A stretch of 30,189 nt of DNA from a virus. Taxonomy: Duplodnaviria > Heunggongvirae > Uroviricota > Caudoviricetes. The notes under the pieces are model-generated. The model saw nothing but the letters and a program-made list of their open reading frames with translations. It did not search any database and was not told the origin of the DNA. A program made the translations under genes and the position numbers. Positions 20,175 to 26,303 of the stretch are shown here, one piece after another; position 1 is the stretch's first letter; each line of letters starts with the position of its first letter. The stretch covers positions 1-30,189 of IMG/VR virus record IMGVR_UViG_2663762810_000004. One strand, given 5' to 3'.

Positions 20175-22232
20175 ATGCCCATTCTTGCACCAGGATTTTT
20201 GGGAGGCTCGTCCGCCGGGAATGGCGGCGGGCCGGTCTCTTCAGTTCAGCAGCCGGAATACTTCTATGTCATCCCGGTTGCCGGTCAGTCAAACGCGATG
20301 GCCTACGGCGAAGGGCTCCCCCTTCCAGACACGCTGGATGCGCCTCACCCGCGTATTAAACAGCTGGCCCGGCGCGCCACGGTAACGCCCGGCGGCGATG
20401 CCTGCAAATACAACGACATTATTCCTCTCGATCACTGTCCGCACGATGTTCAGGACATGAGCGGGATCAGCCACCCGAGAGCGGACCTCAGTAAAGGGCA
20501 ATATGGGTGTGTCAGCCAGACGCTGCACATTGCCAGAAAACTCCTGGCCTGGATCCCCGATAACGCAGGTATTCTGATGGTGCCCTGTTGTCGCGGTGGC
20601 TCTGCCTTCACGCAGGGAGTGGACGGCACTTTCAACGTTGTCAGTGGTGCCAGCGAAACCGCAACCCGATGGGGGGCGGGAAAGCCGTTGTACCGTGACC
20701 TGCTCACCCGCACGAAAGCAGCGCTCGACAGCAACCCGAAAAATATGCTGCTGGCGGTATGCTGGATGCAGGGTGAATTTGATATGACAGGGGCGGCTTA
20801 TGCACAGCAGCCTGCGCTGTTCGACGCTATGGTCAGGCAGTTCCGTACCGACCTGGCGGATTACGCGGGGCAGTGCCCGGACTTCCGGCCTGACAGTGTG
20901 CCGTGGCTGTGCGGGGACACCACGTACTACTGGAAGCGCAACTATCCCGCCCAGTACGATGCTGTTTATGGCGCGTACAGTAAAACCAGTGTCAGCGGCG
21001 TACATTTTGTGCCGTTCATGGTCAGCGAGGATGGCACGAACACCCCTACCAACGCCCCGGCTGAGGATCCGAATGTTCCGGCTGCGGGGTATTTCGGCTC
21101 GGCATCCCGTACTTCTGCCAACTGGACCAGCTCGATCCGCAACAGTCATTTCAGTTCGTGGGCCCGGCGAAACATCATCGCAGAACGTATGGCGGCGGCC
21201 ATTCTGCTGCACGCCGGGCGACGGTCACTGCTGGCGGCCCCGGTTAGTGGAAGTGCAGCGTCTTCAACGGGCGATACAGGCAATGTGGGAACGAGTACGC
21301 TGAAATACGCCCCTGTTGTGGAGGACGCCGGTTATAACGGGCGGCGCGGGGACGGGACGCCGGAGGCCCAGGGCTGGTCAGCCAGCGGCGGTAATTTTAA
21401 CGTGGCACCACACCCGGATGGTAAAGGGGGGCATGTGCTGCAGATCCGCAGAAAAGCCAGTGAAGTCTGGAAAATGGAACGGGCAACCCGACAGGCCGCT
21501 GATTTGTTACGGTATGGTGGCGAGGTGCAGTGCAACTTCCGGCTCGTTAATACACTGACGGCAAACCAGTTTGCTTTTGGCTGCTATCTGCTGGTGAATG
21601 AATCGGATGTTCCGGCCGGAGCCTCGTTACGGCTGAAAGCCGAGGGCACCACACCGGCGCTGATGAATTTCTTCATACAGACGAATGCTACAGATTTGAA
21701 TCTGATGATGCACTGCAAACCCGACAATATCAGGCTGGGTACGTACGGTGCGTACAATCAGGACTGGCATTCGTTCAGGGTCGTTTACCATGGCGGAAAC
21801 ACAGCCCGGGCCACGCTTTATCTCGATGGTGAGTCGAAGGGCGAGTTCACGCTGGCGTACTCGCCGGGGGCTGTCGATGCAGGCATGCTGCAACTGACAA
21901 ATATCACCTCCTCACCGACCTATGGATGCAATATTAAGGATTTTACCGTCAAAATTTACCGCGACGATGCCATAGTCAGTCTGCCTGACGACGATGTGTC
22001 CAGTCTGATTTATTTTCCGGCGGGGGAGCGCGGCGGGAAAGTGGTGTTACCGGATGCGAAAATCAGCGCAGGAAACACAGTGCAGGTGGTGGTGAACAAT
22101 GCCGGTATCATCGCCATTGAACCAGCAAGCAGCAACGTACTGCTTAACAATCTGCCTTCTTCTGCAACCACTGACAGAAGTGTCACGCTGGTTCAGACCA
22201 GTCTGGACGGGAAGACCTGGGTGATTACCTGA
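20175..22232 (+). CDS. Tail-fibre-region protein with an N-terminal SGNH hydrolase/sialate-O-acetylesterase-like domain and a C-terminal lectin-like region (NanS-p-like)
   Basis: N-terminal FYVIPVAGQSNAMAYGE (GQSN motif) and CWMQGEFDM are typical of the SGNH/SASA esterase family. 685 aa; the 3' end is duplicated downstream at about 25216-25383. Confidence 0.75.
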   Translation: MPILAPGFLGGSSAGNGGGPVSSVQQPEYFYVIPVAGQSNAMAYGEGLPLPDTLDAPHPRIKQLARRATVTPGGDACKYNDIIPLDHCPHDVQDMSGISHPRADLSKGQYGCVSQTLHIARKLLAWIPDNAGILMVPCCRGGSAFTQGVDGTFNVVSGASETATRWGAGKPLYRDLLTRTKAALDSNPKNMLLAVCWMQGEFDMTGAAYAQQPALFDAMVRQFRTDLADYAGQCPDFRPDSVPWLCGDTTYYWKRNYPAQYDAVYGAYSKTSVSGVHFVPFMVSEDGTNTPTNAPAEDPNVPAAGYFGSASRTSANWTSSIRNSHFSSWARRNIIAERMAAAILLHAGRRSLLAAPVSGSAASSTGDTGNVGTSTLKYAPVVEDAGYNGRRGDGTPEAQGWSASGGNFNVAPHPDGKGGHVLQIRRKASEVWKMERATRQAADLLRYGGEVQCNFRLVNTLTANQFAFGCYLLVNESDVPAGASLRLKAEGTTPALMNFFIQTNATDLNLMMHCKPDNIRLGTYGAYNQDWHSFRVVYHGGNTARATLYLDGESKGEFTLAYSPGAVDAGMLQLTNITSSPTYGCNIKDFTVKIYRDDAIVSLPDDDVSSLIYFPAGERGGKVVLPDAKISAGNTVQVVVNNAGIIAIEPASSNVLLNNLPSSATTDRSVTLVQTSLDGKTWVIT

Positions 22233-22239
22233 AAAAAAA

Positions 22240-22271
22240 GCCGCTTCTGTAACAGGAAAGACAGAAGCGGC
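22240..22271 (-). terminator. Hairpin terminator at the 3' end of the esterase gene; the U-tract is on the minus strand
   Basis: Perfect 11 bp stem GCCGCTTCTGT/ACAGAAGCGGC preceded on the plus strand by A8 (a T-run on the minus strand). Duplicated at about 25389-25420. Confidence 0.5.
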
Positions 22272-22335
22272 CATGTAGTGCTACTTGCGTTTTTATAAGG
22301 CTATTTTCGGTAGTAAATATGCAGCGTCCTCGTTA

Positions 22336-22920
22336 CAGAGGACACGTAATGTATTTCACCAGCAGGAAACGGAAGGCAAGAGATCGAGCTCTCATTTTTA
22401 ACAGAAATTTATTAGGACAAAATATTGACAGTTATCAGTAAAAAAGGCCGCTTCTACTTTTGGGGAGGAAGCGGCCGGTGAACTACGATGATAATAATGC
22501 TTTCTGACTACATATGTCTTATCGACACAACCCAGTCCTCGGGCAGGTATATTTATTTCACCTGCAGGAAAGAGAAAACAGTGATCAGTCTCTCATTTTT
22601 GAGAAAAATCATAGAAATAAATGATTGCGGGTAAAAAAAACGCTTCACCACAGTAAAGGATGAAGCGTGAGTCAGAATAAAAGTATTCATAAATCCACGT
22701 TTGCATTACTTCCTATACATACAGAAGTAAGGTTACTTATTTCACCTGCAGGGAAAAAAAGGCAAGGATTTGGATCTCATTTTTGAAGAGAACGCCGAAA
22801 AAATAGAATGAAAGGTAAAAAAAACGCTTCAACACAGGACAGGGTGAAGCGCCAGACATAATACAAATCCAATAAACGTAATTTTACTCTTTCAGCACTT
22901 CTGCTCCATACAGAAGTGCA
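22336..22920. repeat. Three tandem ~185-200 bp units of a periodic repeat family (conserved 5' TATTTCACC-[A/T]GCAGG, central CTCATTTTTGA, A-run plus hairpin), followed by a fourth unit fused to the DUF1353-like gene
   Basis: TATTTCACC motif at 22352, 22554, 22738 and 22926; TCTCATTTTTGA about 38 bp downstream of the first three; A7-8 plus hairpin (GGCCGCTTC/GAAGCGGCC, CGCTTCA/TGAAGCG) about 90 bp downstream. Confidence 0.7.
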
Positions 22921-22952
22921 ATATGTATTTCACCATCAGGCGGAACAAGTCA

Positions 22953-24807: not shown

Positions 24808-24965
24808 ATGAGTAAATTCACCACTCCGTCGATACTGGAAATGCTGGGTAATTACAAATGGCAGGTGTACGACCCTTCGAGTTTTACCTCTCAGATGATA
24901 ATGTCAGCGCCAGTGATGTGATTAAAGGTCCCGGCGGGATTTGTGACCGCCTTGGCTGGTTATAG
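24808..24965 (+). pseudogene. DUF1353-like gene 5' fragment, frameshifted/decayed
   Basis: Starts ATGAGTAAATTCACCAC (MSKFTTPSILEMLGNYKWQVY), matching the intact copies, then loses frame and runs into the tail-fibre remnant. Confidence 0.6.
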
Positions 24966-25383
24966 GGGGACAGAGCCCTGGTTTCAGAGTTGACAGTTTG
25001 CCGTGGTTGTGCCGAGGAGCACAACGTACTAATCATTGCAAAACGCATGTCTGGCGATGCAGGTATGCTGCAGCTGGCAAATACCACCTCGTAATCGACC
25101 TGTAGATGCAATATTAAGGATTTCAGAGTCAAAATTTACCGGGATGTGTAGTGATCAGTCGTTTTTTTCTGTGGGAAGCTGCCGCGGGAAATCAGTACTG
25201 CTGGATACAGAAACCAGCGTGGGGAATACGGTACAGGTGGTGGCGAACAATGCCGGTATCATCGCCATTGAACCAGCAAGCAGCAACGTACTGCTTAACA
25301 ATCTGCCTTCTTCTACAACCACTGACAGAAGTGTCACGCTGGTTCAGACCAGTCTGGACGGGAAGACCTGGGTGATTACCTGA
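24966..25383 (+). pseudogene. Decayed remnant of the esterase tail-fibre gene 3' end (internally deleted, with in-frame stops)
   Basis: Nucleotide similarity to 20885-20930 and 21880-22232 of the intact gene, with stops. The last 160 bp or so (VGNTVQVVANNAGIIAIEPASSNVLLNNLPSS...TWVIT) are near-identical to 22075-22232, as is the downstream hairpin. Confidence 0.6.
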
Positions 25384-25494
25384 AAAAAAAGCCGCTTCTG
25401 TAACAGGAAAGACAGAAGCGGCTAGGTAGTGCTACTTGCGTTTTTATAAAGATTATTTCAACAATGAAAAGTACAACCTGTTATATGCATCGCT

Positions 25495-25890
25495 CTCATC
25501 CCTGAAGGCATACAATGTATTTCACCTGCAGGAAAGGTAAGGCAAGGATCAAGCTCTCATTTTTGAGAAAAATCATAGAACCAAATGAATTTAGGGTAAA
25601 AAAACGCTTCGCCACAAGACAGGATGAAGAGTCAGTCAGAAAACAAGCATAATGAATGCAATCCTACTCATTCCGTACTGTTACTCCACATAGAGGTACA
25701 GTATGTGTTTCATCATCAGTCTGTGAATATCGTGGGTCAAGGAAAGATCAGTATCTCATTTCAGAGCATGAGATGCGTTGGAACAGATAAAAATATAAAA
25801 AAGACCGCTCAATCATGGGAGAGAGCGGTGGAAGAAATTTTGACAATATGACCTACAACCAGCAGGAAAAGAAGAAACCTGCTGGTGTAG
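25495..25890. repeat. Two units of the periodic repeat family, followed by a unit fused to DUF1353 copy 2
   Basis: Motif at 25518 (TATTTCACC), a variant at about 25703 (TGTGTTTCATC) and 25896; CTCTCATTTTTGA at 25555; hairpins at about 25598-25625 and 25795-25827. Confidence 0.6.
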
Positions 25891-25922
25891 AGATTTATTT
25901 CACCAGCAGACGGAATAAGTCA

Positions 25923-26303
25923 ATGAGTAAATTCACCACCCCGGCGATACTGGAAAAGCCGGGTCATTACAAATGGCGGGTGTATGAACCCTTCGAGCTT
26001 TACCTCTCGGATGACAACGGTGATGTGATTAAGGTCCCGGCGGGATTTGTTACCGACCTGGCGAGCGTGCCACGGTTATTCTGGACATTCATCCCGCCTG
26101 ATGGTCGGTACGCCAAAGCTGCTATCATTCATGATTACATGTACGATAATGCGCTACGGACAAAGAAAGAAGCAGCTCTCATTTTTCTGGACGGGATGCG
26201 GGTACTGGGTGTGCCAGAGTGGAAGCGTTCGGTGATGTACCACGCTGTACGGATGTTTGGTAAAGGGCGGTATACGCAGAATAGAACCCTTCCAGGTGTT
26301 TAG
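25923..26303 (+). CDS. DUF1353-like small protein, copy 2. Start taken at MSKFTT (25923).
   Basis: About 95 percent identical to copy 1 at the protein level; part of a direct repeat of about 550 bp (22926-23478 vs 25896-26448). Confidence 0.6.
   Translation: MSKFTTPAILEKPGHYKWRVYEPFELYLSDDNGDVIKVPAGFVTDLASVPRLFWTFIPPDGRYAKAAIIHDYMYDNALRTKKEAALIFLDGMRVLGVPEWKRSVMYHAVRMFGKGRYTQNRTLPGV

Follow-up and report, generated by a model that had tools for sequence, protein, structure and literature searches.

In the modular theory of lambdoid phage evolution, differently related segments are joined by homologous recombination at linkers, which lie at the boundaries between modules. Exchangeable cargo sits at the end of the lambdoid tail-gene region, and the moron is a unit composed of a promoter, a gene and a terminator. 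Phage lambda also encodes OOP, a short leftward antisense RNA that lies between two rightward genes and has its intrinsic terminator beside the 3' end of the upstream gene. Here we describe a family of ~190-bp repeated units that can be compared with each of these systems. The units were found in a 30,189-nt stretch of Caudoviricetes DNA (IMG/VR record IMGVR_UViG_2663762810_000004, positions 1 to 30,189), the whole of which is referred to as the window, and are arranged in three arrays, each associated with a gene of the DUF1353 family. This is the family of TtaP, which was shown in 2024 to be a phospholipase A2 (PMC11525133). The repeat family is real, rare and outside Rfam, and consists of gene-derived segmental duplicates at a phage module boundary, each with a terminator.

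The arrays resemble module-boundary linkers in that a short conserved sequence is located between divergent flanks and two independent mosaics switch there; unlike linkers, the boundary is iterated two to four times as a ~190-bp unit that goes back to the 5' end of a gene and each copy of which has a terminator hairpin. As with morons, the location is the end of a late operon, beside leftward cargo genes with their own terminators, but the empty units (those not linked to a DUF1353 gene) contain no conserved open reading frame (ORF) or gene. The single-copy form of the module is similar to lambda OOP, with a leftward terminator abutting the stop codon of an esterase gene and a −35-like TTGAC over the start of the next gene. 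In contrast to OOP, which is single-copy, the element described here is arrayed, has no convincing −10 and has no sequence or Rfam similarity to OOP. The LDR (Ldr/Rdl) and QUAD (Ibs/Sib) loci are also tandem, diverged units of a few hundred bp with a Rho-independent terminator in each, and here too the RNA would be antisense to the 5' region of a gene; they differ from the present units, which have no conserved small hydrophobic ORF and would act on a gene of an enzyme family (126 aa) that each array contains only once. As in processed or internally deleted pseudogenes, the conserved block of the unit is colinear with the leader and an internal segment of DUF1353 and the frame has been lost. 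However, unlike pseudogene copies, all the empty units have one architecture, were multiplied after shrinking and have retained hairpins and motifs at 59% identity.

The repeats had been noticed in a previous sequence-only reading of the window, which claimed about nine units with a recurring motif at a regular period. All nine were confirmed, on the plus strand, at 22352, 22554, 22738, 22926, 24589, 24781, 25518, 25706 and 25896, the variant that had been placed at about 25703 being the copy found at 25706, and the measured spacings within arrays were 184–202 bp. Searching the 30-kb window with TATTTCACCWKCAG and permitting up to two mismatches generated 12 matches, compared with 0.74 expected, and none of 100 shuffles reached this number. 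Each array is closed by a DUF1353 gene or pseudogene, as had been proposed: an intact gene (22953–23333), a pseudogene (24808 to about 24960) and a further intact gene (25923–26303) respectively. The pseudogene of array 2 is a DUF1353 remnant fused to a decayed copy of the 3' end of the upstream gene. A second motif, CTCATTTTTGA, was located 38–40 bp downstream of the first, exactly or with one mismatch, in five of the six empty units of the window; the claim did not hold for U8, which has CTCATTTCAGA. A run of six to eight A residues followed by a hairpin starts 79–91 bp downstream of the motif in all six. Tandem Repeats Finder returned no rows for the window, since divergence between the copies is too great.

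The gene upstream of array 1 is an esterase-like gene of 685 aa (20175–22232, plus strand), with Pfam matches to SASA and DUF6645 and homologues named sialate O-acetylesterase; it had been read as a tail fibre, which these matches and names do not bear out. Its stop codon abuts T0 (22232–22271, minus strand), an A8 run and 11-bp hairpin that on the minus strand form a hairpin and then U8 (−19.9 kcal/mol, z −5.5). Array 1 continues with three empty units: U1 (22347–22476), with the conserved block at 22347–22401, a distal body and hairpin T1 at 22440–22476; U2 (22549–22668; block 22549–22602, hairpin T2 22633–22668); and U3 (22733–22852; block 22733–22786, hairpin T3 22817–22852). These are followed by the gene-linked U4 (22895–22952, plus strand), which consists of a small hairpin (22895–22919) and the leader TATTTCACCATCAGG and extends to the start codon of DUF1353 copy 1 (126 aa, 22953–23333, plus strand; Pfam). 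Gene callers start this gene at the ATG at 22953, and it contains an internal GATCTCATTTTT at 23204–23215. Array 2 has one empty unit, U5 (24584–24701, hairpin T5 24669–24701), and the gene-linked U6 (24776–24960, plus strand; repeat families D4, D10 and D11), which is composed of the leader and the 5' part of the DUF1353 pseudogene. Array 3 is preceded by a second copy of the esterase 3' end, decayed and interrupted by in-frame stops (25036–25382, plus strand; repeat families D2 and D8, 85–89% identity) and by T0b, a second copy of T0 (25383–25422, minus strand). Its two empty units are U7 (25513–25632), in which hairpin T7 (25598–25632) is the sole decayed one, and U8 (25701–25829), with the variant motifs TGTTTCATC and CTCATTTCAGA and hairpin T8 (25797–25829). 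The gene-linked U9 (25859–25922, plus strand), with the hairpin CCAGCAGG/CCTGCTGG and the leader TATTTCACCAGCAG, precedes DUF1353 copy 2 (25923–26303, plus strand; Pfam and gene calls), which has an internal AGCTCTCATTTTT at 26174–26186. A tenth, degenerate leader-like motif at 26491 belongs to an element at 26489–26545 (plus strand) with a small hairpin, TTTATTTCAATTGCAGG and, about 40 nt further, CACATTTTTTTAAC.

On the plus strand the order within a unit is an A run and hairpin, a variable spacer of ~80 nt which closes in a small hairpin, a conserved block of ~55 nt and a final ~35 nt, poorly conserved, which extends to the next A run. The conserved block consists of the DUF1353 leader, TATTTCACC-N-GCAG, followed by GATC and then by CTCATTTTT. 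The leader is common to empty and gene-linked units and is located 13–27 nt ahead of the DUF1353 start codon in the latter. GATC, a Dam site, is present in the block of 11 of the 12 empty units (for example at 22382–22385, 22583–22586 and 25547–25550), with two in units U1' and U3' of a related array, L141. Within the block, U1 and U7 are identical over 13/13 nt (AGCTCTCATTTTT) to codons within DUF1353 copy 2, U3 is identical over 12/12 nt to codons within copy 1, and U8 and an internal segment of DUF1353 could be aligned over 28 columns. These 12–13-nt matches to the codons A(D)LIF were the top local alignment every time, with z up to 4.8. U5 and the L141 unit U4' retain CAATGATCAA, which is close to the start-codon region CAATGAGTAA. 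The shared leader and the internal codon match argue that the units are, very probably, duplicated copies of the esterase–DUF1353 spacer together with a short, internally deleted gene stub. The idea that the units might be degraded copies of a single known gene, which the previous reading had named as a refutation, is correct for the block, which is DUF1353 leader and internal segment, and fails for the remainder, which is spacer; conservation independent of the gene is also present.

Two minor observations concern the leader. In gene-linked units at 25859–25909 of the window and 10928–10975 of L141, CCAGCAGG, CCTGCTGGTG and the leader sequence CACCAGCAG allow two mutually exclusive hairpins, an arrangement similar to an RNA switch; it was not seen ahead of empty units or of DUF1353 copy 1. 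An exact 15-nt copy of the leader, TTATTTCACCTGCAG, is located at 13141–13155 (plus strand, motif at 13142), inside a 59-aa ORF between the large terminase and portal genes. It has no further unit features nearby and is apparently unrelated to the arrays; it could be an ancient joint left by recombination or a chance match, about 0.1 such matches being expected for any 15-mer in common.

The occurrence of the units in other genomes was assessed with array 1 and DUF1353 copy 1 as the BLAST query, and relatives were found through look-ups of flanking proteins. Among 5426 complete E. coli genomes BLAST detected no unit outside copies of this locus, and just the DUF1353 gene matched, at 68–74% identity; in 50,697 phage records there was no match. 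Exact-pattern scans yielded one match in species-representative genomes, a chance match in an AT-rich coding region, 32 single matches in IMG/VR, none of them similar by BLAST, and 89 in metagenome contigs, where the only genuine match, L080, is the same locus. The family is nevertheless not confined to this locus, as orthologous arrays are present on the Escherichia prophage contigs L141, L143, L156 and L158 and a single-copy form is present in Salmonella prophages. L141, in which the esterase protein is 84% identical, has four empty units and L143 has two. L156 and L158 have a three-unit array in other contexts, L158 being the same prophage with a single module and without the cargo gene. 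Array 1 of the window likewise has three empty units and array 3 has two. The units carry positional identity and can be assigned to U1, U2, U3 and U4' types (U5 and U8 of the window are of the U4' type), same-position copies in different arrays being more alike than neighbours within one array. It follows that the array is old and has since undergone mainly copy loss.

Salmonella-type prophages, both lambdoid and Mu-like (L142, L146, L150, L162, L165, L166 and L167), have the esterase–DUF1353 pair with one spacer of ~135 bp and no empty units. The order in this spacer is esterase stop codon, A run, hairpin, small hairpin, (T)ATTTCACC-N-GCAGG, 12–15 nt and the ATG of DUF1353. On this evidence the single Salmonella-type spacer is likely to be the ancestral form. 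DUF1353 genes located away from the esterase, in the Mu-like L041 and the P2-like L044, are without the leader motif. The units are not a general marker of cargo insertion after tail-fibre genes, as had been suggested, and are confined to one esterase–DUF1353 module lineage.

A role for the units as recombination junctions had also been suggested, and here the relatives were informative. Two independent mosaics change parentage at or inside the conserved block of U1, and copy number differs between loci. L156 is L141-like through the esterase (82–83% identity to the window) and the first spacer, up to 22346, and is identical to the window from 22347, where the U1 block begins. In L143 the change has the opposite direction, from window-like to L141-like, and falls within U1. 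The esterase alleles beside the block differ by 17–18%, while the block is identical. Hybrid units were also found: U7, in array 3 of the window, is a U1-type spacer joined to a U2-type body, and L143 contains a U2/U4' hybrid. Judged from their sequences, these mosaics and hybrids demonstrate that copy-number change and the joining of alleles have occurred by homologous recombination at or inside the conserved block, making the block a working crossover point, both for unequal exchange and for joining esterase alleles to different downstream parts.

Chi sequences were noted in the same region. A perfect Chi octamer, GCTGGTGG, is located in the spacer hairpin ahead of the gene-linked leader in L141 (10942–10949) and L143 (about 2856–2863), and the reverse complement of the CACCAGCAG-type leader matches Chi at seven of eight positions (GCTGGTGA) in leaders of the window, on the minus strand. 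Chi was rejected as a conserved feature; the leader is 7/8 Chi in some units, but its variable position is one of the Chi core bases. Invertase crossover sites, integron attC and dif-like sites were dropped on inspection, with no recombinase, integrase partner or matching consensus found, as was nut boxA/boxB, for which there was no matching consensus.

The hairpins had been described as Rho-independent terminators in minus-strand orientation, and the predicted structures agree with this: six of the seven window hairpins tested fold at −11 to −20 kcal/mol with a U run after them. The unit hairpins of the window gave z of about −3 to −6, and the exception, the decayed T7, folds at −6.5 kcal/mol. 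Overall, 15 of 16 hairpins folded as minus strand gave −11 to −25 kcal/mol, T7 again being the exception. Five to nine consecutive U residues come after most of the stems; T2 of L141 has only UUCUUU. Twenty hairpins from the window, L141, L143 and the Salmonella-type loci were listed, among which there are 16 distinct stem sequences, and pairing is complete or nearly so in all but one. Canonical pairs make up 99% of the outer six pairs, compared with 53.5% when the 3' arms were shuffled, and none of 2000 shuffles reached the observed value. Four additional Salmonella-type modules contribute one more stem variant.

The orientation of the hairpins fits an explanation in which they form a stacked-terminator insulator, leaky terminators in series that stop leftward lysogeny transcription (from the cargo gene and antirepressor operon) from entering the esterase and tail genes. 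All the hairpins are oriented against leftward transcription, the module is at the border of rightward late genes and leftward genes in every locus examined, and T0 abuts the esterase stop codon in all lineages. However, the right-hand side of the arrays already has a strong terminator, Tg (−22 kcal/mol), a fourth or fifth terminator in the series would be under negligible selection, and conservation of the leader block, GATC and the loop motif is left unexplained. We consider this explanation improbable.

The loops raise a different possibility. The sequence CAYRGGA(R)A (plus strand) has been retained in the loop across Escherichia and Salmonella modules while the stems have been replaced (window 22251–22260, 22832–22844 and 24683–24694; L146, L150 and L162), and in 19 of the 20 hairpins the loop contains or adjoins GGA, which is UCC on the minus strand. 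CsrA recognises GGA when it is displayed in the loop of a hairpin. The units could thus be elements of the plus-strand late transcript, in which leader copies and GGA hairpins bind a factor that controls translation of the phospholipase and act as a decoy or sponge. Consistent with this, the leader ahead of the DUF1353 start is conserved at the nucleotide level, including third codon positions, from Salmonella to Escherichia, and several of the small hairpins have G-U pairs which, by our own reading, are valid on the plus strand only. Conversely, the strict A run before the hairpins has no plus-strand rationale and is exactly a minus-strand U tract. GGA occurs about once or twice per 190 nt, unlike the high density of CsrB/RsmZ-type RNAs and far below that of known sponge RNAs; there is no match to CsrB/CsrC or a related Rfam family, and no conserved plus-strand consensus fold, that of the gene-linked leaders being −2 kcal/mol with no covariation. 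In the Salmonella forms the loop GGA may be no more than part of an inner CCC/GGG stem. A plus-strand role is, in our judgement, hardly probable.

Whether the copies are constrained at all was addressed by comparing paralogues, through hairpin pairing and column clustering. Pairwise identity among the 12 empty units averages 0.59, with a minimum of 43%. At least 90% conservation was found in 42 of 173 alignment columns, which are clustered in islands, and the longest run, of nine columns, was reached in one of 10,000 column shuffles. Paired hairpins with 16 different stems and short invariant motifs at 59% overall identity argue that the copies are probably not inert. The opposing explanation is that they are inert relics, tandem duplicates of spacer and gene stub reshuffled by unequal recombination, in which the block is renewed by conversion with the DUF1353 leader. 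The two best-conserved motifs are those in common with the intact gene, and GAT/AGC variants beside CTCATTTTT are common to genes and units, as conversion would yield. The position of the mosaic junctions, the downward trend in copy number (4, 3, 2), the defective state of the prophage and the lack of the family in the searched collections, save for copies of the same locus, are also as expected for relics. Against this, conversion homogenises tracts, and 9-nt islands flanked by 50–60% identity are not its product; 16 different stems that all still pair require selection; and the block segment GGCAAGGATC is conserved without a counterpart in the gene-linked leader. We regard the relic explanation as unlikely, if a serious contender.

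The explanation we favour combines spacer-derived copies with small leftward transcription units. A single spacer in front of DUF1353 has been multiplied to two to four empty copies in an Escherichia lineage, and each unit would be a short leftward transcription unit of about 100–190 nt ending at its own terminator. The leftward RNA would go back to one antisense-type unit, present in the esterase–DUF1353 spacer of the ancestor, and would be antisense to the plus-strand spacer or leader of the phospholipase-family gene. The A run retained before each hairpin makes clear sense only when read on the minus strand, as the U tract with which an intrinsic terminator ends. A terminator placed internally, behind an efficient one, should decay unless it is transcribed from between the two, which argues for a leftward start in each unit. 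Promoter-like sites are present in some units, TTTACC-16/17-TATGAT in U2 and U7 and TTGACC-17-GATGAT in U8; a TTGAC shares bases with the start codon of those esterase-linked DUF1353 genes that were examined, and the distance from the conserved TTG to the AT-rich end of the motif is a constant 18–20 nt. The combined explanation falls a little short of an even chance in our estimation, and the transcription-unit component alone is put forward tentatively. It is doubtful, though conceivable, that the units are independent leftward small-RNA genes derived from the 5' control region of their target, a multi-copy antisense or decoy system that silences the phospholipase-A2-family gene or uncouples it from the late operon; such genes, an unlikely find on present evidence, would be a new family in which copy number is tuned by unequal recombination.

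A number of results weigh against the combined explanation. Neither a built-in scan nor our own weight matrix identified a sigma-70 promoter positionally conserved across units; promoter scores were modest, −10 candidates were poor, U3-type units had no promoter-like site, and the count of such sites across the region is what shuffling predicts. Inspection by eye for sigma-E, sigma-54 and cII-type (TTGC-N6-TTGC) geometries gave nothing consistent. The Rfam 15 search, at gathering and E-value thresholds, gave no match in the region, as expected from the proposal that no described RNA family is involved; the best hit within 22000–26700 had E = 0.013, all were far under the gathering score, and the window matches were only isrK and C4 (27454–27643). 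No consensus structure of the units was found beyond the terminator and small hairpin, inspection of the sequences for G-U wobble gave mixed evidence for the functional strand, and the loop motif CAYRGGA is retained though a plain terminator would not need it. As regards origin, local alignment of the distal bodies to four DUF1353 3' ends gave z no higher than 2.5, and the gene stub is therefore demonstrable over about 45 nt only. Finally, T0 and the leader block are 97–100% identical between orthologues compared with 68% at esterase third codon positions (for T0, 97% identity to its L141 and L143 counterparts, where third codon positions are 68–83%), and this was not used as evidence of selection because mosaic recombination gives the same pattern.

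Coding potential was also assessed. The units had been thought to be non-coding, and no ORF, reading frame or start codon is common to the 12 empty units on either strand. This bears on the possibility that they are tandem type I toxin–antitoxin or small-protein genes in the style of LDR or QUAD, for which the tandem ~190-bp units with a terminator in each, a minus-strand ORF starting MIFLKNE in U2 and U7 (19 and 26 aa), and moderately hydrophobic minus-strand ORFs of 32–39 aa in U2, U3 and U7 could be cited. The long ORFs, however, have their start within the terminator hairpin and continue across its U tract, no hydrophobic stretch is of transmembrane length, and there is no Rfam match to Sib, Rdl or similar. 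With no conserved ORF this interpretation is effectively refuted, and we consider it very improbable. Recurrent 'M.KRFF' ORFs were rejected as small proteins, being merely the terminator arm and U tract read as codons, and a frameshift signal was dropped on inspection, the A run being located past the stop codon.

If the units are relics, they are a clean example of a phage module boundary built from a gene's own leader copied several times, in which the leader copies are the crossover point for swapping esterase alleles, cargo genes and phospholipase genes. If they are active, they would be a small-RNA or RNA-decoy family that arose by duplication of the 5' region of its target, and would indicate tight control of a DUF1353/TtaP-type phospholipase A2 gene which travels with tail-fibre and esterase genes. 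Either way, the conserved single-copy spacer, with its terminator hairpin, small hairpin and TTTCACC-N-GCAGG leader, is a putative regulatory element of the DUF1353 family, a family that in Salmonella and Escherichia is carried by lambdoid, Mu-like and P2-like prophages.

The window is a defective lambdoid prophage with an integrase at the left end and iraM-ycgX-bluR-bluF (the e14 site) at the right, where the flank is 95–96% identical to E. coli. The defect is located at 15542–18526, where hardly anything separates the capsid gene from the tail-tip genes L, K and I that come after it, the tail tube and tape-measure genes being absent; the relatives L003–L006 have retained the J and stf genes to differing extents. 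Arrays 1 and 2 are separated by a leftward cargo gene of the SdiA-regulated/YjiK-like family (23486–24370, minus strand), which is missing from the single-module relative L158. Its strong terminator, Tg1 (23425–23461, minus strand), is of a sequence type unlike T0–T8, and a copy, Tg2, is located at 26396–26432 (minus strand). A 67-aa minus-strand ORF at 23209–23412 has a protein-like start (MYKNEMEKLFQSIEARL...), beyond which it overlaps the 3' end of DUF1353 in antisense. It probably represents what is left of the N-terminus of a leftward gene since lost, in which case the C-terminus of DUF1353 is a fusion here.

To the right of the arrays is a leftward isrK-C4-antirepressor operon, with isrK at 27567–27643 and the C4 antisense RNA at 27454–27539, both on the minus strand. 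These are located directly upstream of a Bro-N/P22-AR antirepressor gene (26748–27407, minus strand), and a bidirectional terminator is present near 26655–26695. The set looks like an immI-type immunity operon.

Two further observations were made on DUF1353 genes in Salmonella. In the Mu-like prophages L041 and L042 (about 1360–4800) the tail-fibre/assembly segment is oppositely oriented between strains and there is a gix/hix-like site, TTAAACCGAGGTTTAC; no invertase gene is called there, and DUF1353 occupies the position of Mu gin. In the Salmonella contigs L146–L149 (about 6900–8055) the esterase–DUF1353 module adjoins CdtA-like and CdtB-like (Exo_endo_phos) toxin genes, neighbours reminiscent of the typhoid-toxin islet, which is where TtaP, of the DUF1353 family, was characterised.

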